Shown: positions 47 to 44,100, numbered from the stretch's first letter. The stretch is DNA of 64,000 nucleotides from Callorhinchus milii (GCF_018977255.1 NW_024704742.1:38564001-38628000); one strand, 5' to 3'. The notes: generated by a model not told the origin, from the letters alone. Made by a program: numbers and translations.

Positions 47-243
47 ATATGGTTTTCCAAGGGATGGCTTCAGCAAAAGCCCAGTGGGCCTTGGTCATTC
101 TCGTAAGTGTTTACATAGCATCACTTGCAATTGAATTGCGATTTTACAACTTTCAGATTCACTTCTGGGATATAAGAAATAGTTCAGGAAACACGAATAA
201 AGCGGGAGCACAAGTCATTCTGGCTTCAAACCTTGTTAGTTAA
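47..243 (+). CDS. TMEM150C: Last coding exon of TMEM150C-like copy 0 (rest of gene lies upstream of the window)
   Basis: U12 branch point TTCCTTAAC and TAG acceptor before 47. Encodes (Y)MVFQGMASAKAQWALVILVSVYIASLAIELRF..., aligning to TMEM150C [24 protein letters not shown]. Near-identical to 14361-14557 and 26704-26900. Confidence 0.8.
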
Positions 244-3412: not shown

Positions 3413-3640
3413 CGACACAAGGTCACCACAAAATGGCGAGGCTGTGGTGAGAGCAGTGCATTCTGGGAATCTTTCTGCCTGAAACGCCTCCAGAACACAC
3501 AGTTGTCGGCGCTGCCATCGGGTGGAGGTTTTTGCAGCACTTTGTGTTGGATGTCAGGAGGGCAATAACTTGCACTTATTGGTTTGTTTAGTGCCAATCA
3601 TAGGGTAAGACGATGGTCTCATAAGTGCTCCATATAGATA

Positions 3641-3962
3641 ATAATAATAATAATCCTTGCATTTGATATAGCGCTTTTCACGTCGGGAGGACGTCCCAAA
3701 GCGCTTCACAGAACACACTGTAAAGTGAATTGACTGTATATTTGTGGGCGAACGCGGCAGCCAATTGCGCACAGCAATGTCCCACAAACAGTCGTAGATT
3801 GAAAATGACCAATTTATTATTGTTTTTGGTTTTGGAGGGATTATTATTAGGCTCTGTGTGGAGTAAGGAAACTTGCCCAAGGTTTCGCCCTCTGCCTGGA
3901 ATTGAACTCAGGTCTCTCGCTTGCAAAGCGAGTGCTCTAACCACTGAGCTACAGGACTCCAC
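3641..3962 (-). mobile_element. Full-length young tRNA-derived SINE, present in this array unit only
   Basis: Head GGAGTCCTGTAGCTCAGTGGTTAGAGCAC...GAGTTCAATTCC (A/B boxes) and (TTA)n tail. Flanked by AGATA at 3636-3640 and 3963-3967. Empty site at ~17670 and ~29715. Confidence 0.9.
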
Positions 3963-4162
3963 AGATAGTGGAGGAAAGACTGTCCAGGAGGGAAGTTTAT
4001 CAATGCCGCTTTGTAAATCACTGGTGTGACTGCACTTGGAATACTGTGTACAGTTATTATAATAATCCTCAAGTTAATAATCCCTCAAGAAATTTTTTTT
4101 TGCTCACTCAATCCACAATTGGCCGACAAGTTTTGCCCAATCAATATGCAGTCAATTCACTT

Positions 4163-4475: not shown

Positions 4476-4481
4476 AACACG

Positions 4482-4622
4482 CAGCAGGTCAGGCAGCATC
4501 TATGGAGAAAGGAAAGGGAATGAACGTTTCGGGTGCACGACCCTTCGTGAAGACGCAATCGTGGACCCCAAACATTGACTGACTTTCCTTTCCTTTCTCC
4601 GCGGATGCTGCCTGACCTGCTG
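4482..4622. repeat. ~140 bp imperfect palindrome (Penelope/MITE-like element)
   Basis: CAGCAGGTCAGGCAGCATCTATGGAGAAAGGAAAGG pairs with CCTTTCCTTTCTCCGCGGATGCTGCCTGACCTGCTG. Copy at 18188-18328. Confidence 0.75.
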
Positions 4623-4679
4623 AGCCCTCCCAGTGATCTCGGGCTCTGCTCCGGATTTCCAGCGTTGAGCGCCTTTGCC

Positions 4680-4850
4680 GAAGTGGGAATGACCTGTCAG
4701 TTGCGCGGCACCGCCCACCCGACACCCGAGGCCGCTGATTGGTCCGAGCGTCTGTCAGTCAGGACGCGGGCCCAATGAGACAGGCGAGGAGGCGGCTGCG
4801 CGTCAGCATCACGTGGGGTCAGGGGCGGTGAGGAAGGCACAAGGTAACGG
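4680..4850 (+). promoter_or_regulatory. CpG-rich promoter and probable non-coding exon 1 of TMEM150C-like copy 1
   Basis: ATTGG and CCAAT boxes, CACGTG E-box, GGGGCGG GC-box, and a donor AAG|GTAACG at 4843/4844. The next exon (acceptor at 7582) carries the ATG. Confidence 0.6.
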
Positions 4851-5109
4851 TCTGTCTCGACAGCCGCTTCGAACAGGAGACGGTGGTGATCGCACTCACA
4901 CTCACACACTGGGGGTCACACCAACATCGGGCGGTGACTCACGTATCGCCTTTCACACGGTAACGACAATAACTTGACGGCGGCGGCGGAGCGCGGGGGG
5001 TGGAGGGGGGTCGAAGAGGAAGGCCTTCGGGTGCGACCTGAAGGTGGGGGAGGGGAGGGCCCAGGGGAGGGGAAGAATGTTCTAGAGTTTCGGGGGGGGG
5101 GGGGGTGGG

Positions 5110-7619: not shown

Positions 7620-10600
7620 ATGAAGAAAATAAGCTTTTGGATGTGCATTCCCATTGCATTCCTGATTGTTGTCATCATTGGAATAATTACAGTGTAAGTT
7701 TACTTTCCTGCTCCTACTATCCTGTGTGAACTAGTCTGCAATTTGTTTTATTTAGTTACAATAAAATAGAGGTTGGACTTGTTCTTCTCCCTCTGCTGAG
7801 GATGTGAGTTACCTGTAGGTGGTTTGAAGCATTTGCATTGATGCCAAACTAAATAGAATTAACATTGTTCAAATGTTTAAAATCCAGCTGATAATTGAGA
7901 AGTTTACTTCTTGTTAAAACTCCAACCAATTTATTTAAATTTAAATATCTTTTGTTAGTTTATTTTTATTAATATTAAGAATATCAATGCATTGTACACC
8001 TGACAATACATGCTGTGAAGCTTTGTACCTGTGTGTGAGTGTGTGTGCCTCTCCGTCTCTCTCTCTCTACATCGACATTGAGGCTTTCTCCTCATGGTTC
8101 ATTCAGCGAGTTTATCCAGAGTATAGATGAGCCACGTGGACTATGAAGATCCCAGGTTTGATCCCCAGTCTGTACTGAGTTATAACCTTTTTAGATTGGT
8201 ATAGAAACCCCCATTATAATGAATTGACTGTTTCAGGTCCATAAGCCGTGAGGGGGGATAAAGCTAAATTGGCTGCCACAGTCACTTCCTGCAGGTTGCA
8301 CATGTGCACTATGAGCAAATGTATCAGCCAGGCTCAGTTGGTAGCACTCTCGCCTCCGAGTCAGAACATTGTGGGTTCAAGCTTCACATTGGAACCCATA
8401 TAGTCTATGCTGACCCTCCGATGCAGTGCTGGGGTTACGCCGCATTGTCAGACGTGACATCTTTCGGATGAGATGTTAAACCAAGGTCCCGTCTGCCTGT
8501 TCAGGTGGATGTTAAAGATTCCATGGCACGATTCGAAAGGAGAAGGGAGTTTCTGACAGTGTCCGGGCCAACAATTCCCCCAAGTAACGACCATTTAACA
8601 CTTCCCACAATCCAGTGTACTACAGCACTGCATTGGAGTATTAGTCCAGACTATGAAAAGTGCTGATGTGGGCTTGAACCCACAACAACACCAACTTGCA
8701 TTTATTTTGGCCCTTCACGCAAGTAACATCTTGGAGTGTTTAAAATGAATCTTCTGATTGAGAAATGAGTGCTACCAGCTGAGCCAGGCTGCCTTGACAT
8801 TTTGTAGTGTGTTTGGTGAACAGGTCCAACTCCAGCACATCTGGGGACCAGTCATTGTGTTAAAGTCACTAAAGTCAGTGCATGCATTTATTTGTGCCAT
8901 ATTAACATTGTTAGCAAGTCACAACACTGGAAGATGGGTCAGGTAATAATAATCCTTACATTTGATACAACAACAACAAGATTACATTTGTGCAGCACCT
9001 TATCACATCGTCGAGATGTCTCAAAGTGCTTCACAGGATATACTGTAAAGTGGATTGACTGTATTTTGTGGGCAAAACGTGCAGCCAGTTTGCTGTGGAG
9101 TGAGTGACCAATTTTTACTGGGGAATTTGTTGGTCAGGACAGTGGGAGAGTTACCCCTTTCTTTTCGAATGTGCCATAGGATCTTTAACATCCACCTAAT
9201 CAGGCAGATGGGACCTCGAATTAATGTCTCATCTGAAATGACGATACCTCCAACAATGTATCACCGCCCCCCAGAACTAGAATGTCAGCTTGGACTATGT
9301 GATCCCAAGTCCCGACATGGGATTTGAACCCACAATCTTCTGACTCAGAGACGAAAATGCTACTACTGCGCCAGGCTGACACACAGTCAATAGACAGGAG
9401 AGGTCTCCAGCAACAGTAGCATGGAGAACCAGCATCCCAATGGAATAATTCAGGTTTCACTACAAAAGGAAGGGAAGCCTAGAGAGGGGCCTAGAGGGAA
9501 ATAAGAGAAAGAAGATGGGAATAAAATACTCTGGATATGTTTTATTTTAGGATCATTTTAGACATGTCAAATTTTATTTTAAACAGATACGTAATAGCAA
9601 GGCAAGAGCAAAGGGTCTGTTCACTTGTTAGCACGTGAGTTAAATTTTTTTGGCCACATAATATCTTAACCTACATTACTTGGGCATAAATTTGTTTGGA
9701 AGGACTCGTGCCTGGAGGAGAATTTGGGGTATTGCCTTTGGCTGCTGGGCTCGGAATTAGGGAATCTCTGACAGGGATTTGTCTAACTGATCGGTATCCA
9801 GTAACCTTTTGCTGGAAATTATGTATGTGTGTGTGTGTGGCTGTTGGGTGATCGAGGGAGGGGTAATGTCTGGAATTGTTATGCTCTTAGGCTTAAGACC
9901 TTTGTATTAAAATTGGAGAAGACTATGCTGAGTTTGGGAAAATGGTCTTAAATTCAGTTTTAATTTGGAAACCCATTTTCCACAGTTCCTACTTGGTCCT
10001 GCAGAAAAATAACTCCTGAATTGAGACTGAATTGAAAATAGTTTTCCAAAATTCTGCATGATCTTTGGTTTGTAATGCAAGATTATGCAGAAGTTTGGAA
10101 AATTAATACATTCAGTCTGAATTCAGAAGCTGTTTTTCTGTTGTTCCTCCAAAGAGCTGAGTAAAATTAATTTTAAAAATCTTGCAAAATTCTGCCTGAT
10201 CTTATATTTTGAGTTAAGGAGATGCACGGTTGAGGGGGAGAGATGGAAGAGCAATAAAATGCAACATATAATTATTGAAATCTATTTACCCTGTAAGTAG
10301 ATTTGTTTCCATGTTGTATGACTGTAAATAACTGTATGTTAATCAAAACCAATTGTGTTTTCTTGCTGGTTTTTCTTATTGAATGTAGGCAAGAAAATTG
10401 TACATTGAAAACTCCCTTTATAAGGTACAGTAGACTTCTATGCAATGTATTTTATTCAGTTTCACCTCTTATTAGTTAATTCAATGTAATATTTTGGAAA
10501 ATCACTCTTTTTCTTTTGAAGTGTGACAGCTGAATATCCTCCTGGAAGCTATATTTTTGCGGAAACAATGTGCCTTGCAGCATTTTTAGGTAGGAAAAGA

Positions 10601-13600
10601 TTCTTAATATTTGCTTATTTGCATTCAGAGCTGTGTGCGAATGGCATTTATGTTGCGTAGAATTACAGAGATTGTTACAACACAGAAATGGGCATTCGGG
10701 CCAACTAATCCGTGCCAGTGGTTATATTTCAGGTGAGTCTCCATCTGTCCTAATACTCTCTCCCACCTCTTCTATGTTACCATCTGTGCTTGTTGAATGA
10801 CGGAAATTGGTCAGTTTATTTTCTTACTTGTTTCCCTTTCTCTTGTAAGGACACTGTTGCATCATTAGAGTTCTGTTGGTATTGGCTCCTCTTCAGTATA
10901 CCACGAAAGTGACTGTCATTAATGTTTAAACGTGAACAGTGATTGTGAATGAGAGCTATCATGGATGTGAGGGCAATGGAGCTGAGTCTGACTATGTCCT
11001 TTCCTATTGGCCACAGATCTGTTCTTTTGAGCTTAAAAAAAGGGAGAACAACACTGTAGCAATCTGAGTAGCAACGGAGTTGATTTTTCTTTACCCCTTT
11101 TCTTACCTTGGGGCACTGATGTCACTTTGCAGGATTGCTGACACAGTACTGACTGACATCAGCTGGGACCTGCCTGGTCTGAATTGGCTTTGAAATCTGT
11201 TTAACGAAAATGGATTCATTGAGCGAAGACATTAGTTTTTTATATTTAAAGAAGTAATAACTTCATTCTTTTTGAACTAGGTTCAGAAGTGAATCTTTAA
11301 TTTTCCTATTATAAGTGCATTTTTATAGGACTGAGAAGAGTAACCACAAAGGTGCTTGTGGAAAGAGAACATTGACAACTATTTTGAGACCAGCCAGATA
11401 ATAATTATAGTATTAAATAACCATCATTATTATAAGATAGATATCAGTGTTCTTTTCCAGTCCTGTTTGCCCTTTATTTCCATACGACTGGAAACTAACG
11501 TGAGTTAAGGTTGCTGAAGATATTGTTATTTGCTAAAAATTGATTTGTTCTACTTTTCCACCTCTTCCAGTGCTTGTAACCGCTGTATTACGGTTTACGA
11601 TACTTCAGACCATGACAAAGAATCAATTCAAGATACTTAACACCATTACGCTGGCATTGCTGTGTCTCGTGTGTGTTGGAATGACGATATTGGGCAATGT
11701 CCAGGTGTAGCTTTTCTGTTTCATTTTCCCAGGCGTATTAAGCAAGTTCCTTGTTACTGGTTCTGGGTGCAAAGCAGCTTTTAATCCTGTCCTTCTGTCA
11801 ATGTGATGTCAATGCATCGGCCAGTACTGCCTTGTGGACTTGGTGAGTTATTGATCTCAACCATGTGTCTGGCAGATCCCCAGTGGATATCTGGACCATC
11901 CCTGAGGTATCATTCAAACATAGAAATTCCTCAAGGTGGGGGTATGGAATCACTCGGGGTGGGGAGGTACACTCAGCTATCCTGATTTACAATACCCTAT
12001 CAAATGCAAATTTACACCCAATTGAAATTGGCTCATGTTGTTGTTTATGGGATGTGACTGGTGCGGATTAGCTGTCGCAACAAGCCAGGAAATTGTATTG
12101 AAAGATTGGGCATATTAACCCATAGAATGGTGGAACAGGCTTGTTGGACTGAATAGTCTCCTCCTGTTCCCATCAAAGTCAGGTCTACATCATTCTCTTT
12201 TAGATGTGTGGTATTAATAGTCAATAAGCAGCAGAATACCATTTGATCGTAGTTTGAGACGATGGCTTGATTTGTCTGGTGTAAAATTATCCAGTAATAA
12301 AATAATAATCCTTGCATTTTATATTGTGCGTTAAGACATCTTTGAAATGTCTCAAAGCGCTTCACAGAATATAACTGTAAAGTGAATTCACTGTATATTT
12401 TGTGGGCGAAATGCGGCAGCCAATTGCACACTTCATTGTCCCACAAAACAGTCGTGGATTGAGTGACCAAATTATTATTTTTATTTATTTATTTTGAAGG
12501 GATCGTTACCCATGGAAAAGTAAACAGTGAACCTCCATACAACATCAGATTCATTATTTTGTTAGTCTATATCAACATCTCCATTATTGGATTACTATTA
12601 TTGTAGTATGCGACTACCAGGATGGTAGAAGGCGATCTAGATAGACCTTGGTCTATTTCTTCTAGCATTTCCTGTGTTGCTATGTACTATACTTCTGGTC
12701 CATTTGCTTTTCCAGTTTACATTTATTTAAAAAAAATGCATAGGTTTCTAACTCTCCAGTGTCCAAGAAGATAAAGGCACCAACCACCTAGTTCAGTAAT
12801 CAGTGAGTCACATTAACCAGAAGGTGGCAGGTTTATAGTAATTCAGTTACAACTAAGATCAGGAACCATTAATTCACACAAAGGGTTGTGAAGATGTGGA
12901 ATGCTCTGCCCCAGAAAGCTATGGAGCCTGATTCAATAGGAATGTTTTAGGGAGAGGTATCCAGACACTTGGGGATTAAAGGTATAAAGGGGTAAGGAGA
13001 AAAGGTGGGGGATTGCGATTAAAAGATCTGACAATTGACTTGGGAGGAAGTGGGGGAAAAAGTTAGGGTATTAGCTCCTGATCACTATTGATGGATCATC
13101 TAAAACATAAATATAAGGATTATACTCAACGTAAACATTTATCTGCAGAAAAATTTGTTTGAATGTTGACTGCAGACATAAGTAGATTTGGCTTTTGTAG
13201 TGCATCACAGCCAAGCTCGATCATGTCTCCAGCCGTGTCCTTTCCCTTTCAGGTCAGGGAGCAATTATACCATCCGTAATGCCTCCCTGATCAGCTAACT
13301 CAGCACAGTCTCAGATGTGGATAGCAATATAAAGATTGTAAATGGTTATTTGATGGTTGAGGACCTTAAACGAAACAGGAATGTTAGTGAGCCTCTGAAT
13401 TATGAGTGATTTGTACTTGCACAGAGCAGCAGTTTTGTGACACAAATGGTATTTTATCCTTCCAGTTGTCCGTCAACAGTTTGTTGCATAATATCGGTGC
13501 CTACGCAGCCTTTGGAGTTGGATTAATAGCCTGTTGGACCAATTCTGTGCTGACATTCCACGCGAATATCCAAATGGAAGGGCGAATAATCGGGATCTTC

Positions 13601-14557
13601 CGTACTTTCCTTTCGTTCACAGCAACAATAGCCTTTATCCTGTGTATCCTTCATCCGTGTGTTAAGAAAAAAGGCAACAACATAGAAATCAGGACTCAAA
13701 TGCTCATTTTCTGACCCGCTGACCTTGGAAAGGTGAGTTTTATCAGTTCCTAACTCTTTACCTTCTTCATTTCCAGGACCTTAACCCAGAATTTGTTTCT
13801 CCCTCTGTTTTCATTTTAACCTTCATGCAATGTTGCCAGATTGAGTGGGTTCACACCCAATTTGGTGTGTTTTTGTTGTACTATGTGTGAGAAAACAGCT
13901 TTGGGTGGTGCCTCATTGTTATTTAATTTGAACCCTTTGACTACGTTTTCTTAGTTCCAAAAGCACTAACCTAAATTGGTCACTCTGATACCCATAGTAG
14001 GTAAGCAACACGTAATATTAGGCTACTTTTGGGCTAGTATTTGGTTGACTTTGGGCTACAAAAGTATTTTAATTTCTGGCCAATCTGACTTTGTTGTGTA
14101 CTGCATTATCAAATGCTGCTGTTCATGCAGACAACAAAGGCGAGAGTTTGGTTCAGCAGCTGGCACTTGCAACTCTGGGTCATGAATGAATTTCTGCTGT
14201 TCATTCTATGTGTCATGTGTAGCACACGGTGTTTTCAGCTTAAAGAAAGCAGTAGATGGATTTCATGTACTTAAGAAGAAAATTTATTAATTGCCAAAAG
14301 CAGTACAGTATCTGATAAGTATGGAAATATTTGCTGAATTTCCTTAACATATCTCCACAGATATGGTTTTACAAGGGATGGCTTCAGCAAAAGCCCAGTG
14401 GGCCTTGGTCATTCTCGTAAGTGTTTACATAGCATCACTTGCAATTGAATTGCGATTTTCCAACTTTCGGATTCACTTCTGGGATACAAGAAATAGTTCA
14501 GGAAACACGAATAAAGCGGGAGCACAAGTCATTCTGGCTGCAAACCTTGTTAGTTAA
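7620..14557 (+). CDS. TMEM150C: Diverged TMEM150C-like (DRAM/TMEM150 family) membrane protein, copy 1, 244 aa
   Basis: Coding exons 7620-7693, 9587-9634, 10389-10424, 10522-10589, 11571-11704, 13466-13643, 14361-14557 (735 nt, all GT-AG, phases consistent). Motifs PFISVTAEYPP, AVLRF, GMTILGNVQ, HNIG, NIQMEGRIIGIFR, AQWAL match TMEM150C. Convergent to ENOPH1, as in mammals. Confidence 0.85.
8325..8590 (+). mobile_element. Deu-domain-type SINE (AmnSINE1/SacSINE1-like)
   Basis: GGCTCAGTTGGTAGCACTCTCGCCTC head plus CTGCCTGTTCAGGTGGATGTTAAAGATTCCATGGCAC core. Related copies at ~8980-9385 (-), 40610-40960, 54063-54450 and in unit 2. Confidence 0.6.
13644..14360 (+). other. U12-type (minor spliceosome) GT-AG intron of TMEM150C-like copy 1
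   Basis: 5' splice site GTATCCTT at 13644. Branch point TTCCTTAAC at ~14340-14348, close to the CAG acceptor, with no long polypyrimidine tract. Confidence 0.85.
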
Positions 14558-15412
14558 ACATGCAGTATTTGTCCTGTAAAGAGTACAGAATAGTGACAGG
14601 GAATACTGTCAGTTTTCACTTTGAATATTATTGTTGAGTTTTGTTTTTCAAAGAACAGTATATTCTGTATAACTAACTATTTAACTCCATTACTGATCTT
14701 CCTTGGTCAGACTGTTCTTTGATATCAAGCGGGTAAGGGTGCCCCTATCTGGAGAAGCAGTATTTGCACACTGCAGAGTCACTAGGTTTTGACTTTTACC
14801 AACCTGCATTGAATACATTCTGGAATAAGGCAAACAAGCTGAGTCCATTCGGGAGAATGGGTAGTCGATTTCAAACACAGAGAAATTTCATGTGTAGGTG
14901 ACATACATATGTGAAACTCTGTCTAGTTTGGATACTCTTAATAATAATAATAATAATCATCCGTGAATTTGATACAGCACCTCAAACGTCTCAAAGCGCT
15001 TCACAGAATATCCTGTAAAGTTAATTGAATGTATATGTTGTGGGTGAAATGTGTTAGCCAATTGCATACAGCAGTATCCCACAAACATGATGATGGGTTT
15101 CTGCACTACTCCAGATAGATATTCCTTCCACTTTGAGTAATGTTATTGAAATAGGGCTTCTGAATTTGGTAGGATGTAAAAGTGAAAATAATAAATAATA
15201 ATTTACATTTGATATAGCGCATTATCATGTCTTCGATACTTCTCAAAATGCTTCACAGAATATACTGTAAAGTGAATTCATTGTATATTTTGTAGGCGAA
15301 ACGCAGGAGCCAATTGCGCACAGCAGCGTCCCACAAACAGATGTGGATTGAGTGACCGCATTATTATTATTTTTATTAATATACTGTAATATTGAATTAT
15401 TTCCAGCGTTGT

Positions 15413-16786
15413 TTACCGATCAACTTCACCAAACACAATATCTTGTGTTCCTATAATCGCAACCACATCAGCTAACATGTGTCCCTGAGACATTTTATCA
15501 AGTCCGGCTAAATGAGCAAAACCGGGCGCTTTAATCTTACATCTATAAGGGCGACTTGTTCCATCTGACACTAAATACACTCCAAACTCCCCCTTTGGCG
15601 CTTCAATCGCTGTGTAAGTGGCCCCAGGCGGAACTTGATATCCCTCCGTATATAACTTAAAATGATGGATTAATGCTTCCATTGACTCCTTCATCTCGCT
15701 TCTCTTGGGAGGAGAGATTTTAGCATCATCAACTTTGATCTCTCCCTCAGGCATCTTGTTCAGGGCCTGAAGTACAATCCTCAAACTCTGCCTCATCTCC
15801 TCCACCCGACACACATAGCGATCATAACAATCTCCATTACTTCCTATGGGGACGTCGAATTCCACCTGGTCATAGGCATCGTAGGGTTGAGATTTTCTTA
15901 AATCCCATTTTATCCCAGATCCTCTTAACATCACCCCACTGAATCCATAATTCAACGCTTCCTGAGCTGTTATGACTCCAATATCAACCGTACGATTTTT
16001 CCAAATTCTGTTGTCTGTGAACATCTCCTCGACCTCATCAATTCGGATCGAGAAATTGGTCATAAAGGTGTATATATCGTCCATTAATCCGAGGGGAAGG
16101 TCCTGATGGACGCCACCAGGTCGGACATAAGCTGCGTGCATTCTGGCTCCGGAAACCCGCTCGTAGAATTCCAACATCTTTTCCCTCTCCTCGAACATCC
16201 AGAAAAATGGGGTCATCGCCCCAATATCAAGAGCGTGTGTGGTTATGGCCATAATGTGGTTCAATATTCTGGTGATCTCTCCGAACAGGACTCTTATCCA
16301 CTGAGCTCGAGGAGGTGGTCTGATGTTCAGCAGCTTCTCCACAGCGAGAGAATAGCACTGTTCATTGCACATCATAGACACGTAATCCAGTCTGTCAAAG
16401 TAGGGCAGGGCCTGCAGGTAGGTTTTAGCCTCGATCAGTTTCTCTGTCCCGCGGTGTAAGAGGCCGATGTGGGGGTCACACCGCTTGACCGACTCCCCAC
16501 TCAACTCCATCACCAGCCTCAGGACACCATGAGCTGCCGGGTGTTGTGGCCCAAAGTTTACAGTCAGGGTAGAGACGGTTTTCTCTGCCGGAGGGTCTTT
16601 GTCGTTCCAGGGCGCAGGTTTCCACTTGATGTTGTTGTGATCGGGATACATGACGGCTCCGGAGTATTGCTGCATCCACTGCTCGTCCGGCTGCCACTGC
16701 TGAGCTCCTCGGCTGATGGCGGCCCCGAGGCCCTGAAGAGGCGGGAGGAGGAGGCGCTGAGCTCGACATAGCCCGGCTCTCAGCAN
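15413..16786 (-). CDS. NDUFS2: Intronless NDUFS2 retrogene copy 2 (first base of ATG falls in the N gap)
   Basis: Translation identical to copies 1 and 3 from Leu2 to the stop. Readable sequence ends ...CTCAGCA at 16785. Confidence 0.93.
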
Positions 16787-17445
16787 NNNNNNNNNNNNNN
16801 NNNNNNNNNNNNNNNNNNNNNNNNNNNNNNNNNNNNNNNNNNNNNNNNNNNNNNNNNNNNNNNNNNNNNNNNNNNNNNNNNNNNNNNNNNNNNNNNNNNN
16901 NNNNNNNNNNNNNNNNNNNNNNNNNNNNNNNNNNNNNNNNNNNNNNNNNNNNNNNNNNNNNNNNNNNNNNNNNNNNNNNNNNNNNNNNNNNNNNNNNNNN
17001 NNNNNNNNNNNNNNNNNNNNNNNNNNNNNNNNNNNNNNNNNNNNNNNNNNNNNNNNNNNNNNNNNNNNNNNNNNNNNNNNNNNNNNNNNNNNNNNNNNNN
17101 NNNNNNNNNNNNNNNNNNNNNNNNNNCCCTCTCTNNNNNNNNNNNNNNNNNNNNNNNNNNNNNNNNNNNNNNNNNNNNNNNNNNNNNNNNNNNNNNNNNN
17201 NNNNNNNNNNNNNNNNNNNNNNNNNNNNNNNNNNNNNNNNNNNNNNNNNNNNNNNNNNNNNNNNNNNNNNNNNNNNNNNNNNNNNNNNNNNNNNNNNNNN
17301 NNNNNNNNNNNNNNNNNNNNNNNNNNNNNNNNNNNNNNNNNNNNNNCCCCCTCTCCCTCTCTCTGTCCTTCCCCCTCTCTCCCTCTCTGTCTCCTTCCCC
17401 CTCTCTCTCCCCCCTCTCTCCTTCCCCCTCTCCCCCTCTCTCCCC
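16786..17445. repeat. CT/GA tract, largely replaced by N gaps (16786-17126, 17135-17346)
   Basis: Residual CT-rich sequence flanks the gaps. Same position as the tracts in the other units. Confidence 0.85.
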
Positions 17446-17867
17446 GACACAAGGTCACCACAAAATGGCGAGGCTGTGGTGAGAGCAGTGCATTCTGGGA
17501 ATCTTTCTGCCTGAAACGCCTCCAGAACACACAGTTGTCGGCGCTGCCATCGGGTGGAGGTTTTTGCAGCACTTTGTGTTGGATGTCAGGAGGGCAATAA
17601 CTTGCACTTATTGGTTTGTTTAGTGCCAATCATAGGGTAAGACGATGGTCTCATAAGTGCTCCATATAGATAGTGGAGGAAAGACTGTCCAGGAGGGAAG
17701 TTTATCAATGCCGCTTTGTAAATCACTGGTGTGACTGCACTTGGAATACTGTGTACAGTTATTATAATAATCCTCAAGTTAATAATCCCTCAAGAAATTT
17801 TTTTTTGCTCACTCAATCCACAATTAGCCGACAAGTTTTGCCCAATCAATATGCAGTCAATTCACTT

Positions 17868-18181
17868 GGAGTCCTGCAGCTCAGTGGTGAGAGCACTCGC
17901 TTTGCAAGTGAGAGACCTGAGTTCAATTCCAGGCAGAGGGCGAAACCCTGGGCAAGTTTCCTTACTCCACACAGAGCCTAATAATAATCCCTCCAAAATC
18001 AAAAACAATAATAAATTGGTCATTTTCAATCCACCACTGTTTGTGGGACATTGCTGTGCGCAATCGGCTGCCGCGTTCGCCCACAAATGTACAGTCAATT
18101 CATTTTACAGTATATTCTTTGAAGCGCTTTGGGACGTCCTGTACCAAATGCAAGGATTATTATTATTATTATTATTATTAT
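17868..18181 (+). mobile_element. Full-length tRNA-derived SINE
   Basis: Counterpart of 4163-4475. Confidence 0.88.
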
Positions 18182-18384
18182 AACACGCAGCAGGTCAGGC
18201 AGCATCTATGGAGAAAGGAAAGGGAATGAACGTTTCGGGTGCACGACCCTTCGTGAAGACGCAATCGTGGACCCCAAACATTGACTGACTTTCCTTTCCT
18301 TTCTCCGCGGATGCTGCCTGACCTGCTGAGCCCTCCCAGTGATCTCGGGCTCTGCTCCGGATTTCCAGCGTTGAGCGCCTTTGC

Positions 18385-18556
18385 CGAAGTGGGAATGACC
18401 TGTCAGTTGCGCGGCACCGCCCACCCGACATCCGAGGCCGCTGATTGGTCCGAGCGTCTGTCAGTCAGGACGCGGCCCCAATGAGACAGGCGAGGAGGCG
18501 GCTGCGCGTCAGCATCACGTGGGGTCAGGGGCGGTGAGGAAGGCACAAGGTAACGG
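18385..18556 (+). promoter_or_regulatory. CpG-rich promoter and probable non-coding exon 1 of TMEM150C-like copy 2
   Basis: Same CCAAT, E-box and GC-box set as 4680-4850. Donor AAG|GTAACG at 18549/18550. Confidence 0.6.
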
Positions 18557-18814
18557 TCTGTCTCGACAGCCGCTTCGAACAGGAGACGGTGGTGATCGCA
18601 CTCACACTCACACACTGGGGTCACACCAACATCGGGCGGTGACTCACGTATCGCCTTTCACACGGTAACGACAATAACTTGACGGTGGAGGGGGGGGTCG
18701 GCCGAGGCGACGGTCGAAGAGGAAGGCCTTCGGGTGCGACCTGAAGGTGGGGGAGGGGAGGGCCCAGGGGGAGGGGGAGAATGTTCTAGAGTTTCGGGGG
18801 GGGGGGGGGGGTGT

Positions 18815-19190
18815 GCAACAACAACAACATGACATTTATAGAGCGCCTTTCGCGTTGGGAGGACCTCCCAAAGCGCTGGACATTAAGGTGTCCGCGGCTC
18901 GAGCGTGGGGGGAGGAGGGGTGGGGGGGCTGGAGGGGTGGGGGGGAGGGGGGGGGGGGGGGGAGAGCGACCAAAGGCACGATCGAAGAGAAGGGTCGTGA
19001 GACCGGCCTTGAAGGAGGCGAGGGAGGGAGGGAGGGAGGGAGGGAGCGAGGCAAAGGGATTGTGGGATGGAGTTCCAGAGTGTGGGGGCAGAGAGGCTGA
19101 AAGCCCGGCCACCGATGGTTGGGCGGGAGACATGGAGCAGACCAGAGCCCACTGAAGGAGAGAGTGGGCAGGTTGGTAGAAAGTCAGCAA
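18815..19190 (-). mobile_element. Chimeric L2-type LINE 3' fragment
   Basis: Left part matches 5110-5275; right part matches 6635-6850. Confidence 0.7.
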
Positions 19191-19962
19191 GTCAGAGAGT
19201 TTGGAGGGAGGAGAAGCCGTTTGCTGCGAGACAAAGGCAGAGAGAGTTCAGTTCAGCAGATACCAGTTCAGTGAGATATTGTAACCAGATTGATATGGGG
19301 CTGTGAGCAGCTGTTCCTACTACATGGAGCATCAGTAGCCACACCATCGAGCAACTTGCAGCCAGTGAGTGCTCCCTGCATGGTGATTGGGTTACGGGAG
19401 GGAGGCTTGAGAGGCTTCCAGCAACAGTGTCCCATAGTGCCTTCAAGAAATGCCCTCCCAATAATAAAATAATAATCATCTTTGCATTTAATATAGCACC
19501 ATTCATGTTGGGTGGATTTCTCAAAGCGTTTCAAAAGATTTTACAAAAGTTTGGTATTTGTGCATTGGAGGGTTGTGCATCTGACCAGTCACTGGGCTCT
19601 TCTACAAAAAGGAAGCCTATCGATGAGCCGAGAGGGTTCGAAAGACATTCCCACCCATGGGGACAATGTGTCTGGGAGGAGCAGGTGTCCCTCCCTTTCT
19701 GTTAGTGCTCACTGCAGGTGGTATGAGTTATTTTGTTGCATTTGGTTCAATGGTCAGTGCTGCAAGACGCTACCCCATGTGAGGGGCCCAATATATAAAT
19801 TAAGTTGTTGTTCTCGTCAATGGTTTGTTCACCAATTATGATTGGTGTCGATAGTTTCTTCTGTGACACCCTCATGCCCACTAAAAAATCTTTGTGCAAG
19901 TAACACCTTGTCGCTTTTGTTTCAGAAAGAAAGAAGTCAAAATTTGTAAACCACACACTAAA

Positions 19963-22900
19963 ATGAAGAAAATAAGCTTTTGGATGTGCATTCCCATTGC
20001 ATTCCTGATTGTTGTCATCATTGGAATAATTACACTGTAAGGTTACTTTCCTGCTCCTACTATCCTGTGTGAACTAGTCTGCAATTTGTTTTATTTAGTT
20101 ACAATAAATTAGAGGTTGGACTATCCTTCTCCCTCTGCTGAGGATGTGAGTTATCTGTAGGTGGTTTGAAGCATTTTCTTTGATGCCAAACTAAATAGAA
20201 TTAACGTTGTTCAAATGTTTAAAATCCAGCTGATAATTGAGAAGTTTACTTCTTGTTAAAACTCCAACCAATTTATTTAAATTTAAATATCTTTTGTTAG
20301 TTTATTTTTATTAATATTAAGAATATCAATGCATTGTACACCTGACAATACATGCTGTGAAGCTTTGTACCTGTGTGTGAGTGTGTGTGCCTCTCCGTCT
20401 CTCTCTCTCTACATCGACATTGAGGCTTTCTCCTCATGGTTCATTCAGCGAGTTTATCCAGAGTATAGATGAGCCACGTGGACTATGAAGATCCCAGGTT
20501 TGATCCCCAGTCTGTACTGAGTTATAACCTTTTTAGATTGGTATAGAAACCCCCATTATAATGAATTGACTGTTTCAGGTCCATAAGCCGTGAGGGGGGA
20601 TAAAGCTAAATTGGCTGCCACAGTCACTTCCTGCAGGTTGCACATGTGCACTATGAGCAAATGTATCAGCCAGGCTCAGTTGGTAGCACTCTCGCCTCTG
20701 AGTCAGAACATTGTGGGTTCAAGCTTCACATTGGAACCCATATAGTCTATGCTGACCCTCCGATGCAGTGCTGGGGTTACGCCGCATTGTCAGACGTGAC
20801 ATCTTTCGGAAGAGATGTTAAACCAAGGTCCCGTCTGCCTGTTCAGGTGGATGTTAAAGATTCCATAGCACGATTCGAAAGGAGAAGGGAGTTTCTGACA
20901 GTGTCCGGGCCAACAATTCCCCCAAGTAACGACCATTTAACACTTCCCACAATCCAGTGTACTACAGCACTGCATTGGAGTATTAGTCCAGACTATGAAA
21001 AGTGCTGATGTGGGCTTGAACCCACAACAACACCAACTTGCATTTATTTTGGCCCTTCACGCAAGTAACATCTTGGAGTGTTTAAAATGAATCTTCTGAT
21101 TGAGAAATGAGTGCTACCAGCTGAGCCAGGCTGCCTTGACATTTTGTAGTGTGTTTGGTGAACAGGTCCAACTCCAGCACATCTGGGGACCAGTCATTGT
21201 GTTAAAGTCACTAAAGTCAGTGCATGCATTTATTTGTGCCATATTAACATTGTTAGCAAGTCACAACACTGGAAGATGGGTCAGGTAATAATAATCCTTA
21301 CATTTGATACAACAACAACAAGATTACATTTGTACAGCACCTTATCACATCGTCGAGATGTCTCAAAGTGCTTCACAGGATATACTGTAAAGTGGATTGA
21401 CTGTATTTTGTGGGCAAAACGTGCAGCCAGTTTGCTGTGGAGTGAGTGACCAATTTTTACTGGGGAATTTGTTGGTCAGGACAGTGGGAGAGTTACCCCT
21501 TTCTTTTCGAATGTGCCATAGGATCTTTAACATCCACCTAATCAGGCAGATGGGACCTCGAATTAATGTCTCATCTGAAATGACGATACCTCCAACAATG
21601 TATCACCGCCCCCCAGAACTGGAATGTCAGCTTAGACTATGTGATCCCAAGTCCCGACATGGGATTTGAACCCACAATCTTCTGACTCAGAGACGAAAAT
21701 GCTACTACTGCCCAAGGCTGACACACAGTCAATAGACAGGAGAGGTCTCCAGCAACAGTAGCATGGAGAACCAGCATCCCAATGGAATAATTCAGGTTTC
21801 ACTACAAAAGGAAGGGAAGCCTAGAGAGGGCCTAGAGGGAAATAAGAGAAAGAAGATGGGAATAAAATACTCTGGATATGTTTTATTTTAGGATCATTTT
21901 AGACATGTCAAATTTTATTTTAAACAGATACGTATTAGCAAGACAACAGCAAAGGATCTGTTCACTTGTTAGCACGTGAGTTAAATTTTTTTGGCCACAT
22001 ATATCTTAACCTACATTACTTGGGCATAAATTTGTTTGGAAGGACTCGTGCCTGGAGGAGAATTTGGGGTATTGCTTTTGGCTGCTGGGCTCGGGATTAG
22101 GGAATCTCTGACAGGGATTTGTCTAACTGATCGGTATCCAGTAACCTTTTGCTGGAAATTATGTATGTGTGTGTGTGTGGCTGTTGGGTGATCGAGGGAG
22201 GGGTAATGTCTGGAATTGTTATGCTCTTAGGCTTAAGACCTTTGTATTAAAATTGGAGAAGACTATGCTGAGTTTGGGAAAATGGTCTTAAATTCAGTTT
22301 TAATTTGGAAACCCATTTTCCACAGTTCCTACTTGGTCCTGCAGAAAAATAACTCCTGAATTGAGACTGAATTGAAAATAGTTTTCCAAAATTCTGCATG
22401 ATCTTTGGTTTGTAATGCAAGATTATGCAGAAGTTTGGAAAATTAATACATTCAGTCTGAATTCAGAAGCTGTTTTTCTGTTGTTCCTCCAAAGAGCTGA
22501 GTAAAATTAATTTTAAAAATCTTGCAAAATTCTGCCTGATCTTATATTTTGAGTTAAGGAGATGCACGGTTGAGGGGGAGAGATGGAAGAGCAATAAAAT
22601 GCAACATATAATTATTGAAATCTATTTACCCTGTAAGTAGATTTGTTTCCATGTTGTACGACTGTATATAACTGTATGTTAATCAAAACCAATTGTGTTT
22701 TCTTGCTGGTTTTTCTTATTGAATGTAGGCAAGAAAATTGTACATTGAAAACTCCCTTTATAAGGTACAGTAGACTTCTATGCAATGTATTTTATTCAGT
22801 TTCAACTCTTATTAGTTAATTCAATGTAATATTTTGGAAAATCACTCTTTTTCTTTTGAAGTGTGACAGCTGAATATCCTCCTGGAAGCTATATTTTTGC

Positions 22901-25900
22901 GGAAATAATGTGCCTTGCAGCATTTTTAGGTAGGAAAAGATTCTTAATATTTGCTTATTTGCATTCAGAGCTGTGTGCGAATGGCATTTATGTTGCGTAG
23001 AATTACATAGATTGTTACATCACAGAAATGGGCATTCGGGCCAACTAATCCGTGCCAGTGGTTATATTTCAGGTGAGTCTCCATCTGTCCTAATACTCTC
23101 TCCCACCTCTTCTATGTTACCATCTGTGCTTGTTGAATGACGGAAATTGGTCAGTTTATTTTCTTACTTGTTTCCCTTTCTCTTGTAAAGACACTGTTGC
23201 ATCATTAGAGTTCTGTTGGTATTGGCTCCTCTTCAGTATACCACGAAAGTGACTGTCATTAATGTTTAAACGTGAACAGTGATTGTGAGTGAGAGCTATC
23301 ATGGCTGTGAGGGCAATGGAGCTGAGTCTGACTATGTCCTTTCCTATTGACCACAGATCTGTTCTTTTGAGCTTTAAAAAAAGGGAGAACAACACTAGCA
23401 ATCTGAGTAGCAACGGAGTTGATTTTTCTTTACCCCTTTTCTTACCTTGGGGCACTGATGTCACTTTGCAGGATTGCTGACACAGTACTGACTGACATCA
23501 GCTGGGACCTGCCTGGTCTGAATTGGCTTTGAAATCTGTTTAACGAAAATGGATTCATTGAGCGAAGACATTAGTTTTTTATATTTAAAGAAGTAATAAC
23601 TTCATTCTTTTTGAACTAGGTTCAGAAGTGAATCTTTAATTTTCCTATTATAAGTGCATTTTTATAGGACTGAGAAGAGTAACCACAAAGGTGCTTGTGG
23701 AAAGAGAACATTGACAACTATTTTGAGACCAGCCAGATAATAATTATAGTATTAAATAACCATCATTATTATAAGATAGATATCAGTGTTCTTTTCCAGT
23801 CCTGTTTGCCCTTTATTTCCATACGACTGGAAACTAACGTGAGTTAAGGTTGCTGAAGATATTGTTATTTGCTAAAAATTGATTTGTTCTACTTTTCCAC
23901 CTCTTCCAGTGCTTGTAACCGCTGTATTACGGTTTACGATACTTCAGACCATGACAAAGAATCAATTCAAGATACTTAACACCATTACGCTGGCAATGCT
24001 GTGTCTCGTGTGTGTTGGAATGACGATATTGGGCAATGTCCAGGTGTAGCTTTTCTGTTTCATTTTCCCAGGCGTATTAAGCAAGTTCCTTGTTACTGGT
24101 TCTGGGTGCAAAGCAGCTTTTAATCCTGTCCTTCTGTCAATGTGATGTCAATGCATCGGCCAGTACTGCCTTGTGGACTTGGTGAGTTATTGATCTCAAC
24201 CATGTGTCTGGCAGATCCCCAGTGGATATCTGGACCATCCCTGAGGTATCATTCAAACATAGAAATTCCTCAAGGTGGGGGTATGGAATCACTCGGGGTG
24301 GGGAGGTACACTCAGCTATCCTGATTTACAATACCCTATCAAATGCAAATTTACACCCAATTGAAATTGGCTCATGTTGTTGTTTATGGGATGTGACTGG
24401 TGCGGATTAGCTGTCGCAACAAGCCAGGAAATTGTATTGAAAGATTGGGCATATTAACCCATAGAATGGTGGAACAGGCTTGTTGGACTGAATAGTCTCC
24501 TCCTGTTCCCATCAAAGTCAGGTCTACATCATTCTCTTTTAGATGTGTGGTATTAATAGTCAATAAGCAGCAGAATACCATTTGATCGTAGTTTGAGACG
24601 ATGGCTTGATTTGTCTGGTGTAAAATTATCCAGTAATAAAATAATAATCCTTGCATTTTATATTGTGCGTTAAGACATCTTTGAAATGTCTCAAAGCGCT
24701 TCACAGAATATAACTGTAAAGTGAATTCACTGTATATTTTGTGGGCGAAATGCGGCAGCCAATTGCACACTTCATTGTCCCACAAAACAGTCGTGGATTG
24801 AGTGACCAAATTATTATTTTTATTTATTTATTTTGAAGGGATCGTTACCCATGGAAAAGTAAACAGTGAACCTCCATACAACATCAGATTCATTATTTTG
24901 TTAGTCTATATCAACATCTCCATTATTGGATTACTATTATTGTAGTATGCGACTACCAGGATGGTAGAAGGCGATCTAGATAGACCTTGGTCTATTTCTT
25001 CTAGCATTTCCTGTGTTGCTATGTACTATACTTCTGGTCCATTTGCTTTTCCAGTTTACATTTATTTAAAAAAAATGCATAGGTTTCTAACTCTCCAGTG
25101 TCCAAGAAGATAAAGGCACCAACCACCTAGTTCAGTAATCAGTGAGTCACATTAACCAGAAGGTGGCAGGTTTATAGTAATTCAGTTACAACTAAGATCA
25201 GGAACCATTAATTCACACAAAGGGTTGTGAAGATGTGGAATGCTCTGCCCCAGAAAGCTATGGAGCCTGATTCAATAGGAATGTTTTAGAGAGAGGTATC
25301 CAGACACTTGGGGATTAAAGGTATAAAGGGGTAAGGAGAAAAGGTGGGGGATTGCGATTAAAAGATCTGACAATTGACTTGGGAGGAAGTGGGGGAAAAA
25401 GTTAGGGTATTAGCTCCTGATCACTATTGATGGATCATCTAAAACATAAATGTAAGGATTATACTCAACGTAAAAATTTATCTGCAGAAAAATTTGTTTG
25501 AATGTTGACTGCAGACATAAGTAGATTTGGCTTTTGTAGTGCATCACAGCCAAGCTCGATCATGTCTCCAGCCGTGTCCTTTCCCTTTCAGGTCAGGGAG
25601 CAATTATACCATCCGTAATGCCTCCCTGATCAGCTAACTCAGCACAGTCTCAGATGTGGATAGCAATATAAAGATTGTAAATGGTTATTTGATGGTTGAG
25701 GACCTTAAACGAAACAGGAATGTTAGTGAGCCTCTGAATTATGAGTGATTTGTACTTGCACAGAGCAGCAGTTTTGTGACACAAATGGTATTTTATCCTT
25801 CCAGTTGTCCGTCAACCGTTTGTTACATAATATCGGTACCTACACAGCCTTTGGAGTTGGATTAATAGCCTGTTGGACCAATTCTGTGCTGACATTCCAC

Positions 25901-26900
25901 GCGAATATCCAAATGGAAGGGCGAATAATCGGGATCTTCCGTACTTTCCTTTCGTTCACAGCAACAATAGCCTTTATCCTGTGTATCCTTCATCCGTGTG
26001 TTAAGAAAAAAGGCAACAGCATAGAAATCAGGACTCAAATGCTCATTTTCTGACCCGCTGACCTTGGAAAGGTGAGTTTTATCAGTTCCTAACTCTTTAC
26101 CTTCTTCATTTCCAGGACCTTAACCCTGAATTTGTTTCTCCCTCTGTTTTCATTTTAACCTTCATGCAATGTTGCCAGATTGAGTGGGTTCACACCCAAT
26201 TTGGTGTGTTTTTGTTGTACTATGTGTGAGAAAACAGCTTTGGGTGGTGCCTAATTGTTAAAGTTTTAATTTGAACCCTTTGACGACGTTTTCTTAGTTC
26301 CAAAAGCACTAACCTAAATTGGTCACTCTGATACCCATAGTAGGTAAGCAACACGTAATATTAGGCTACTTTTGGGCTAGTATTTGGTTGACTTTGGGCT
26401 ACAAAAGTATTTTAATTTCTGGCCAATCTGACTTTGTTGTGTACTGCATTATCAAATGCTGCTGTTCATGCAGACAACAAAGGCGAGAGTTTGGTTCAGC
26501 AGCTGGCACTTGCAACTCTGGGTCATGAATGAATTTCTGCTGTTCATTCTATGTGTCATGTGTAGCACACGGTGTTTTCAGCTTAAAGAAAGCAGTAGAT
26601 GGATTTCATGTACTTAAGAAGAAAATTTATTAATTGCCAAAAGCAGTACAGTATCTGATAAGTATGGAAATATTTGCTGAATTTCCTTAACATATCTCCA
26701 CAGATATGGTTTTCCAAGGGTTGGCTTCAGCAAAAGCCCAGTGGGCCTTGGTCATTCTCGTAAGTGTTTACATAGCATCACTTGCAATTGAATTGCGATT
26801 TTACAACTTTCAGATTCACTTCTGGGATATAAGAAATAGTTCAGGAAACACGAATAAAGCGGGTGCACGAGTCATTCCGGCTGCAAACCTTGTTAGTTAA
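19963..26900 (+). CDS. TMEM150C: Diverged TMEM150C-like protein, copy 2, 244 aa
   Basis: Coding exons 19963-20036, 21928-21975, 22729-22764, 22862-22929, 23910-24043, 25805-25982, 26704-26900. Frame and splice sites intact. U12 intron at 25983-26703. Confidence 0.85.
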
Positions 26901-27749: not shown

Positions 27750-29123
27750 TTACCGATCAACTTCACCAAACACAATATCTTGTGTTCCTATAATCGCAAC
27801 CACATCAGCTAACATGTGTCCCTGAGACATTTTATCAAGTCCGGCTAAATGAGCAAAACCGGGCGCTTTAATCTTACATCTATAAGGGCGACTTGTTCCA
27901 TCTGACACTAAATACACTCCAAACTCCCCCTTTGGCGCTTCAATCGCTGTGTAAGTGGCCCCAGGCGGAACTTGATATCCCTCCGTATATAACTTAAAAT
28001 GATGGATTAATGCTTCCATTGACTCCTTCATCTCGCTTCTCTTGGGAGGAGAGATTTTAGCATCATCAACTTTGATCTCTCCCTCAGGCATCTTGTTCAG
28101 GGCCTGAAGTACAATCCTCAAACTCTGCCTCATCTCCTCCACCCGACACACATAGCGATCATAACAATCTCCATTACTTCCTATGGGGACGTCGAATTCC
28201 ACCTGGTCATAGGCATCGTAGGGTTGAGATTTTCTTAAATCCCATTTTATCCCAGATCCTCTTAACATCACCCCACTGAATCCATAATTCAACGCTTCCT
28301 GAGCTGTTATGACTCCAATATCAACCGTACGATTTTTCCAAATTCTGTTGTCTGTGAACATCTCCTCGACCTCATCAATTCGGATCGAGAAATTGGTCAT
28401 AAAGGTGTATATATCGTCCATTAATCCGAGGGGAAGGTCCTGATGGACGCCACCAGGTCGGACATAAGCTGCGTGCATTCTGGCTCCGGAAACCCGCTCG
28501 TAGAATTCCAACATCTTTTCCCTCTCCTCGAACATCCAGAAAAATGGGGTCATCGCCCCAATATCAAGAGCGTGTGTGGTTATGGCCATAATGTGGTTCA
28601 ATATTCTGGTGATCTCTCCGAACAGGACTCTTATCCACTGAGCTCGAGGAGGTGGTCTGATGTTCAGCAGCTTCTCCACAGCGAGAGAATAGCACTGTTC
28701 ATTGCACATCATAGACACGTAATCCAGTCTGTCAAAGTAGGGCAGGGCCTGCAGGTAGGTTTTAGCCTCGATCAGTTTCTCTGTCCCGCGGTGTAAGAGG
28801 CCGATGTGGGGGTCACACCGCTTGACCGACTCCCCACTCAACTCCATCACCAGCCTCAGGACACCATGAGCTGCCGGGTGTTGTGGCCCAAAGTTTACAG
28901 TCAGGGTAGAGACGGTTTTCTCTGCCGGAGGGTCTTTGTCGTTCCAGGGCGCAGGTTTCCACTTGATGTTGTTGTGATCGGGATACATGACGGCTCCGGA
29001 GTATTGCTGCATCCACTGCTCGTCCGGCTGCCACTGCTGAGCTCCTCGGCTGATGGCGGCCCCGAGGCCCTGAAGAGGCGGGAGGAGGAGGCGCTGAGCT
29101 CGACATAGCCCGGCTCTCAGCAT
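27750..29123 (-). CDS. NDUFS2: Intronless NDUFS2 retrogene copy 3 (array-terminal), 457 aa
   Basis: Complete ORF, protein identical to copy 1. AATAAA (plus-strand TTTATT at 27709-27714) lies ~36 nt past the stop. Confidence 0.96.
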
Positions 29124-31951: not shown

Positions 31952-42341
<10,390 letters not shown>

Positions 42342-42799: not shown

Positions 42800-44100
42800 G
42801 GGGGGGCGTCGGTCAGGTGTCTTGACGCATGCGAAAACCCATCACCGTGCTTAATAGCGCTCTGAGACGCCGTCCGGCGTGGAGGGCGCTATATAAATCC
42901 AAGTTGTTATTGTTAATAATAATAGGACCCAAACCAAGCTGAGATATTCATGCATCCCACCTACACGTGTAAGGTCCGGAGACGGATTGCTGGAACAGAA
43001 CGTGCACCCTCTCTCCCCGGAGGGGACGCATCCTGCTTACCTAATTCCGGAAAGGATTAGGCGCAGGCTGGCCGGAGCCAAGGCTTGGGGACCCCAGAGC
43101 GTGCATTGGGGTAACTGCCGGAGTCTAACCAGCTGAACCCGTGCAGCTCGCCGTTGGTATTGCTGTCCGGCAAGCGTTCCCAGTGCCGGTCTAGCGGAGA
43201 CCAGCCTACCTGTTGCAGGGCTTTGGTTCGCAGGGTTGACAGGTAGGACAGGTGGGGGTGAGGGCACACAGCACAGGTGTGAATGGAGTGAGAGAGAGTG
43301 AGTGAGTGAGTGAGTGAAACTGATTGACTTCCCGGCTCGGTGATTGACAAGCTGACTGGCTGCGTGATTGGCTGGACCGGGGAGGTCACGTGCCGGACCT
43401 AAAAAGCCCGTAGGGGGGCGGGGTCGGGGAGGAGGGGGGGGGGGCGGGGTCGGGGCTGAAATGCCCGGATCTTCCTGCCGACAACGCCGCCATTTTGTAA
43501 CGTCCGCGACGCCGAGACCGACCCCCTCCCCCCCAAAGCCCGGCCCGGCCCGGCCCCCCCCCCGCACCCGCCCCGCCCAACCCGACCCGACCCCGCCCCG
43601 CCTCACCCAAACCCCCGCCCCCCACCCACCCCCACCCGCCCCCCCCCGCACACAGCACCCACACCCCGAGAGACAGACTCGCGCACACACACACACACAC
43701 CCCACACACACACACACCCCGGGCCGCCATGGACTCCGAGTACGATTACACGCCCTCGTCCGCCGGCGGCCTCATGGAGCAGACCATGGCGGCGACAGAC
43801 GAGTTCCCCGAAGGAGCCAAAATAAACGCGAGCAAGAACGAGGAGGACGAGGGGTGAGCGAGAGGGAGAGAGGGAGGGAGAGAGGCCCAGGTCTTTGTCC
43901 CGGTCCCCCCTGTCCCGGCCCCTGTGCTGTCAGGGTGTGAGCGGGCGGTGTGATTACTGTGGTTGTTAGATACACACCCCGGTGCGGGTGGGGTGGGGGC
44001 GCTCCCCCCCCCCTGGCCCGGCCTCCCCCCCCACCCCTGGCCCGGCCTCCCCCTGGCCCGGCCCCCTGGCCCGGCCTCCCCCCCCCCCCCCCCCGGGCCC
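42800..44100. promoter_or_regulatory. Bidirectional CpG-island promoter of ENOPH1 and HNRNPDL
   Basis: CpG/GC-rich. GATTGG, GTCACGTG, GGGGCGGGG boxes, G-runs at 43413-43455 and YY1 motif CGCCATTTTG at 43488-43497. Lies between the divergent first coding exons. Confidence 0.85.

Follow-up and report, generated by a model that had tools for sequence, protein, structure and literature searches.

Two intact, tandem copies of TMEM150C in Callorhinchus milii differ more in their coding exons than in the introns between them. Of 735 exonic positions 19 are different (2.58%), against 34 of 6198 intronic positions (0.55%, plus 6 indels), a 4.7-fold difference; an exon excess under conversion is a known kind of pattern, here in a gene new to it. 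The reading which accommodates it best, and to which we give about an even chance, is one in which exchange between the repeat units, by gene conversion or unequal crossover, evens out the introns while selection keeps a pool of coding variants distributed among copies and individuals.

The window analysed is a stretch of 64,000 nucleotides, C1:38564001-38628000 of the C. milii assembly G000, and positions below are those of the window unless another contig or locus is named. Self-comparison gives a 10.3-kb repeat (6486-16785 against 18816-29122, 98.8% identity) together with a third unit that starts upstream of the window, such that the array is made up of three units, an upstream one with a TMEM150C pseudogene (copy 0) and two with intact copies (copies 1 and 2). 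Each unit carries TMEM150C on the plus strand and an intronless NDUFS2 frame on the minus strand, the two lying tail to tail. The features are as follows.

47..243, plus strand: last exon of TMEM150C copy 0, the pseudogene; its exons 1, 2 and 6 precede the window, at about 5085-8907 of L006
1097..2469, minus strand: intronless NDUFS2 frame of unit 0, differing from unit 1 by 2 silent changes and no replacement
3638..3963, plus strand: young SINE insertion with target-site duplication before copy 1, absent before copy 2
4480..5000, no strand: CpG island (61% GC, CpG o/e 0.98) between unit-0 NDUFS2 and TMEM150C copy 1
7620..14557, plus strand: TMEM150C copy 1, seven coding exons, intact 735-nt frame, 244 aa (P0001, XP_042197217.1; Pfam Frag1)
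7620-7693, 9587-9634, 10389-10424, 10522-10589, 11571-11704, 13466-13643, 14361-14557, plus strand: coding exons of copy 1
15413..16785, minus strand: intronless NDUFS2 frame of unit 1, whose start cannot be read within the window; identical to unit 2 over 1373 bases
18186..18700, no strand: second CpG island, in front of copy 2 (60% GC, CpG o/e 0.94)
19963..26900, plus strand: TMEM150C copy 2, seven coding exons, intact, 244 aa (P0002, XP_042196663.1)
19963-20036, 21928-21975, 22729-22764, 22862-22929, 23910-24043, 25805-25982, 26704-26900, plus strand: coding exons of copy 2
27750..29123, minus strand: intronless NDUFS2 frame of unit 2, from ATG
42276..42341, minus strand: first exon of an ENOPH1-like gene, a synteny marker (presumably ENOPH1-like, from its DxEGTT motif)
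43501..47031, plus strand: CBFNT and RRM exons of an HNRNPD/HNRNPDL-type gene, a synteny marker

Copies 1 and 2 translate, as the original prediction held, without stops or frameshifts into P0001 and P0002, the C. milii entries that the database calls TMEM150C and TMEM150C-like; all introns of copy 2 are GT-AG. Copy 0 lacks exons 3-5, has a 2-base deletion in exon 1 and has lost the AG of its exon-2 acceptor, and there is no CpG island in front of it, unlike copies 1 and 2. The island at 4480..5000 is likely a promoter common to unit-0 NDUFS2 and copy 1, and a CpG-island query of 601 bases has only two full-length matches in the assembly, those before copies 1 and 2. Compared with the junction before copy 1 (5200-6620), that before copy 2 (18816-18962) is ~1.4 kb shorter, a loss that looks like recombination between repeat ends of 79% similarity (5115-5417 and 6488-6785).

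Judged from sequence, the gene is TMEM150C (Tentonin-3) by family, tree and neighbours. Pfam PF10277 (Frag1/DRAM/Sfk1) is matched with E values of 7e-29 and 2e-29; a predicted model (pLDDT 93.5) has six helices, at residues 6-31, 61-90, 93-118, 125-153, 159-182 and 185-204; eight of the ten looked-up hits are named TMEM150C, the other two being unnamed; and a tree of 23 rows and 256 columns separates a 19-row TMEM150C clade (support 100/100) from four unnamed outgroup rows. The neighbours of the array appear to match the mammalian order, which we take to be SCD5 - TMEM150C - ENOPH1 - HNRNPD/DL, with a weak desaturase match 25 kb upstream (E 0.082, under the cut-off) as the SCD5 candidate. Genes of this neighbourhood are co-listed on pig chromosome 8 in an excerpt of PMC12846694. 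In other words, the C. milii gene agrees with TMEM150C elsewhere in family, in its six helices, in its closest relatives and in its neighbours, while the C. milii protein differs from other TMEM150C proteins in a core only 37-38% identical and in forming a tandem array with a pseudogene.

In its core the C. milii protein shares 37% identity with sharks and 38% with bony vertebrates, against 49% between sharks and bony vertebrates; nine shark orthologs are 34-39% identical to the C. milii protein, and the best full-length relatives, from a search of 1.84 billion representatives, reach 35-44%. The branch leading to the C. milii protein is 1.19 changes per site long, the median of the end branches being 0.19, which is striking in a genome reported to evolve more slowly than that of any other vertebrate (PMC3964593, in part). 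Of 59 columns conserved in bony vertebrates the C. milii protein keeps 36-37, the nine sharks 41-48, and 18 columns are invariant across 21 sequences. No other chimaera is present among the 17 hits of the ortholog search, only the C. milii protein itself was matched in word-index searches, and neither a sequence search nor Foldseek returned a solved structural relative.

That exons outpace introns had been predicted, and every change then listed was found, exon by exon: 16 nonsynonymous differences (V/L in exon 1; I/L, E/Q and V/I in exon 2; none in exon 3; T/I in exon 4; L/M in exon 5; S/R, A/T and A/T in exon 6; L/F, M/L, S/Y, R/Q, T/I, Q/R and L/P in exon 7) and three silent ones (AGG/AGA, TTG/TTA and GGA/GGT). 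Differences per exon, from 1 to 7, are 1/74, 4/48, 0/36, 1/68, 1/134, 4/178 and 8/197. The introns range from 0.17 to 1.03%, the quietest being intron 5 (11705-13465) with the 3 differences claimed for it in 1761 bases; the ‘about ten’ differences put at 8040-9500 are, by count, 8 substitutions and 1 indel. The exon–intron contrast has a Fisher P of 8.7e-7, or 7.5e-5 by block resampling in which the clustering of the introns is kept, and the comparison with all alignable non-coding DNA (19/735 vs 68/9397) gives P 1.1e-5. CpG hypermutation as the cause is rejected, since the excess stays at non-CpG sites alone (14/684 in exons, 29/6047 in introns). At the intron rate, the expected number of exon differences would be 4.0 if neutral and 1.6 at omega 0.2.

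The same excess, when clusters are taken as the unit, has a P of 0.009-0.037, which is weak for a pattern picked from a wide scan. Elsewhere the baseline is 0/1373 in NDUFS2, 1/1000 just upstream and 9/849 downstream, and the spacer before the genes, at 24/1350 (1.8%), is not significantly lower than the exons (P 0.26), 13 of its 24 differences lying in one badly aligned 30-base patch. Divergence within the introns is overdispersed (dispersion 2.5, P 1.7e-5), an unevenness which is what conversion would produce. The differences come in patches (4 in 22 bases of exon 2, 4 in 28 bases of exon 6, 10 in 170 bases at the start of intron 1), and the exon excess sits in exons 1, 2, 6 and 7, those also present in copy 0, with 17/495 (3.43%) against 2/240 (0.83%) in the remainder. 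None of the three silent changes is more than 8 bases away from a replacement (P 0.02). The NDUFS2 frames of the array units show two silent changes and no replacements.

The original prediction went on to propose positive or diversifying selection, with dN exceeding dS and a pathogen, a ligand or channel tuning as possible drivers. Omega does point upwards, at 1.69, 1.91 and 2.14 for a transition bias of 1, 2 and 4, but is not significant (one-sided P 0.30, 0.23 and 0.17; 95% interval of the 1.69 value, 0.48-8.99), and pooling with the changes private to copy 0 gives 30 nonsynonymous to 6 synonymous changes with P 0.08-0.21. The 16:3 ratio alone therefore shows nothing beyond an omega near 1, not being different from the ~3:1 ratio of sites. 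What speaks for the proposal is the number of differences: drift at the intron rate predicts ~4 in the exons, not 19, such that some selection on the coding sequence is the better bet. Positive selection on the C. milii TMEM150C copies is plausible but unproven. Polarised with copy 0, seven replacements are private to copy 1, seven to copy 2, and two are unpolarised; given this symmetry the idea that a single copy is decaying as a pseudogene is unsupported. The replacements are milder than random (BLOSUM62, P 0.03-0.07; Grantham, with constants as we presume them to be, P 0.05-0.06), and outgroup conservation at the 16 sites is the same as at other sites (P 0.88).

As to where in the protein the changes fall, about half had been placed in or beside the outer loops; strictly within these loops there are 3 of 16, and 6 of 16 within four residues of them, a looser fit than half, while 5 of 16 are in the inner tail (P 0.11). 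With the outer half defined by taking the S1-S2 loop as extracellular, after the mouse model (PMC11310380, in part), 10 of the 11 non-tail changes are in that half, with a P of 0.02 that ignores their clustering into ~6 clusters. In the mouse protein, E127 was found by mutagenesis to be needed for current, and E127 and F139 are pore residues of the channel model (passages of PMC11310380). From the spacing of the H-N-x-G motif, by which the mouse numbering is also set, mouse E127, V131 and F139 would correspond to C. milii L126, I130 and V138, and S125R adjoins the position of E127. Glutamate is absent from the residue-126 column in C. milii and in nine of nine sharks and mostly kept in bony vertebrates. 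This mismatch bears on function, not on orthology, and such natural orthologs without the mouse pore glutamate (C. milii and the nine sharks) provide a direct test of the pore model, in a protein whose channel role is disputed (PMC9582506, in part).

Four of the 24 listed runs, from two studies, were aligned to copy 1: X1 and X2, whose kind is unrecorded and which behave as DNA, and X5 and X6, which we guess to be RNA, no run being recorded as RNA among the holders of the sequence. Among the 40 variant rows listed, beyond which there are 87 further ones, 29 repeat letters of copy 0 or copy 2, such that the exon differences are real, and 11 are new, all of these non-coding. Sequencing error as the source is rejected, as copy-2 letters recur in other runs at 10566, 11657, 14371, 14378, 14460 and 14469, and copy-2 residues are also present in the older protein models P0003-P0005. 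At the four exon-7 sites 14371/14378/14460/14469 the reference copies read CAAA, AACG and CTAA, and the contigs read AAAA in X1, CTCG in X2, AAAA in X5 and AACG in X6. Residues 68 and 105 are found in all four combinations (T-L in P0001, I-M in P0002, I-L in P0003 and T-M in P0005), X2 contigs matching I-L and X1 contigs T-M. Moreover, an X2 exon-7 contig with a depth of 29.5 carries, at four sites, letters that would be in the minority if the reference haplotypes were fixed, which such haplotypes do not predict. The coding variants thus look like polymorphisms that have been shuffled, not like differences fixed between paralogs, and, since Logan contigs merge copies, the mosaics may partly be assembly products. 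X1 has, in addition, 5 new changes in a 75-base stretch of intron 5, an intron that is quiet elsewhere. In X6, equal depths of 4.46 at exons 4 and 5, with an empty intron bin between, hint that a single spliced contig, carrying copy-1 letters, spans both; the joint is absent from the listing and intronic contigs are present.

Comparison with the pseudogene is informative on exchange. Copy 0 and copy 1 differ by 8.1% beside an insertion and by 5.2% in an exon-6 block bracketed by insertions, and by only 0-1% in the middle of intron 1 and in NDUFS2. Under exchange combined with selection, an old duplication would have made copy 0, leaving about 8% divergence where insertions block exchange, and ongoing exchange would reset the mid-introns and NDUFS2 to near identity. 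The third unit would likely be recent, arising from unequal crossover between two alleles or from their doubling in the assembly, and diversifying or balancing selection would keep short coding patches different, the three silent changes being carried along. Counted against this combination are that the copy 0 divergence, which peaks at exons 1, 2 and 6, also coincides there with insertion/deletion breakpoints, and that there are no new coding letters among the 40 listed variant rows of other runs. A donor search of the assembly returned no fourth close copy or processed pseudogene, its 3 DNA matches and 12 exon matches being all in the array; other PF10277 loci are on other contigs. One of these, at C7:7568362-7590162, is another tandem pair of the family, with two PF10277 exon sets separated by ~14 kb.

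The main alternative, to which we give clearly less than an even chance, is relaxed constraint helped by luck: the ancestral role would be much lost in chimaeras, omega would be near 1, and conversion would happen to have spared, in this pair, more of the exons than of the introns. The 16:3 ratio is what this predicts, the loss of conserved columns relative to the nine sharks is in keeping with it, and both the modest cluster-level P and the overdispersed introns, to which the X1 changes in intron 5 add, leave room for chance; yet the excess persists under block resampling with intron clustering kept, neither frames nor splice sites are broken, the replacements tend mildly to the conservative side and 18 columns remain invariant. 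A similarly tentative place is given to the reading that copies 1 and 2 are alleles of one locus that the assembler lined up one after the other, or that occur together only on a rare copy-number haplotype. This would make the differences polymorphism, not divergence of paralogs, and is compatible either with exchange plus selection or with relaxed constraint. Here the part absent from copy 0 is covered by one 2414-base contig (depth 10.7 in X1 and 16.6 in X2), and 6 of the 14 other listed contigs are more than 1.61 times deeper, 1.61 being the arithmetic ceiling for two intact copies and one pseudogene, though the other eight are under it; the fit is slightly closer for one intact plus one pseudogene copy (weighted error 3.2 in X1 and 8.2 in X2) than for two plus one (5.3 and 12.4), though two plus two fits equally well. 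X1 differs from copy 1 at 13 positions in the 2414-base contig, the same number as copy 2. The depth evidence is weak, since contig depth is no copy number and a single-copy baseline is absent, and the two junctions differ by the SINE insertion and the ~1.4 kb deletion, more than is usual for alleles. The paralog status of copies 1 and 2 is uncertain, and if the allelic reading holds, most fish lack the annotated ‘TMEM150C-like’ and one of the NDUFS2 copies as genes of their own.

Two further readings fit worse than exchange with selection, relaxed constraint or allelism. The picture in the original prediction, of established paralogs with fixed, selected differences shielded from conversion, we consider quite unlikely: exon peaks over homogenised introns are indeed the signature of the red/green opsins (PMC3924837, in part), and the non-tail changes do gather in the outer half, but the letters are recombined in other runs and in the older protein models (with contigs that merge copies), and the deep X2 exon-7 contig carries the would-be minority letters. 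Highly improbable, in our estimation, is RNA-templated conversion from a copy-0 transcript of exons 1, 2, 6 and 7, which would write exon-only differences and make selection unnecessary. It would account for the limitation of the excess to the copy-0 exons, and the many broken NDUFS2 copies in the genome are a sign of active retroposition; against it, copy 0 is ancestral and the odd copy derived at five of six outgroup-polarised sites (25, 28, 32, 35 and 132, not 183; by eye), copy 0 has no CpG island, a diverged processed TMEM150C copy was not found in the assembly, and one tract, 7692-7864, crosses an exon–intron border.

Like the primate opsins, the array consists of tandem copies whose introns resemble each other more closely than their exons do (PMC3924837, in part); in the opsins the differences in exon 5 are fixed and their function is known, while the C. 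milii letters are recombined, occur in six exons and are of no known effect. Further parallels, which the favoured reading follows, are MHC clusters and Arabidopsis RPP8, in which conversion is combined with balancing selection and pseudogenes act as donors (parts of PMC3924837 and of bioRxiv 10.1101/694240). The likeness to these lies in a few-copy array with a pseudogene in the cluster, in variants common to copies and individuals (four runs, two studies) and in coding diversity above intron diversity; the divergence in the TMEM150C array is, however, much lower (2.6%). If exchange with selection is true, the gene of a disputed mechanosensitive channel would be fast-evolving and coding-diverse in the slowest vertebrate genome, suggestive of a function other than touch sensing. 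A bolder extension, that chimaera TMEM150C has left its mechanosensory role, lost its pore glutamate and become a surface protein (a pathogen receptor, for instance) under diversifying selection over the long term, with an MHC-like stock of variants on its outer face that conversion with a pseudogene renews, is in our judgement doubtful; to our knowledge TMEM150C has no immune role. No paper on TMEM150C in cartilaginous fishes was found in a search mostly outside subscription literature and genome-paper supplements, TMEM150 and elephant shark occurring together only as a supplement label; a C. milii heterozygosity figure was not found in the literature searched, and the one supplement file of PMC3964593 seen holds no TMEM150, NDUFS2 or heterozygosity figure.

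The NDUFS2 frames are of interest in their own right. The only full-length intact NDUFS2 frames in the assembly are the three intronless copies, the other 22 matches being partial and many of them with stops, and no intron-containing parent was seen there, an unassembled one being possible. NDUFS2, which encodes a core subunit of complex I and is present three times in this assembly, is likely an orphan retrogene in C. milii. As with orphan retrogenes (the term is that of PMC3548309, in part), the only intact frames are intronless; unlike them, NDUFS2 is here itself triplicated, tail to tail with TMEM150C. Unspliced contigs over 13796-14900 (intron 6, exon 7 and downstream) have depths of 72.6 in X5 and 548 in X6, other exons being below 10, and polyadenylation-like hexamers are present on the minus strand at 13922, 14068, 14283 and 15372. 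These deep contigs may be an NDUFS2 3' UTR antisense over TMEM150C exon 7, strand being not visible in the data.

Other repeats are present in the vicinity. At L001:1-6371, minus strand, three reading frames are open for more than 6 kb, probably a long tandem repeat, and there is no Pfam match in the one frame scanned. The window itself has a tandem repeat array of ~700 bases at 57382-58102 and, at 33335-33712 on the plus strand, a decayed reverse-transcriptase fragment with a weak RVT_1 match, likely a LINE remnant.
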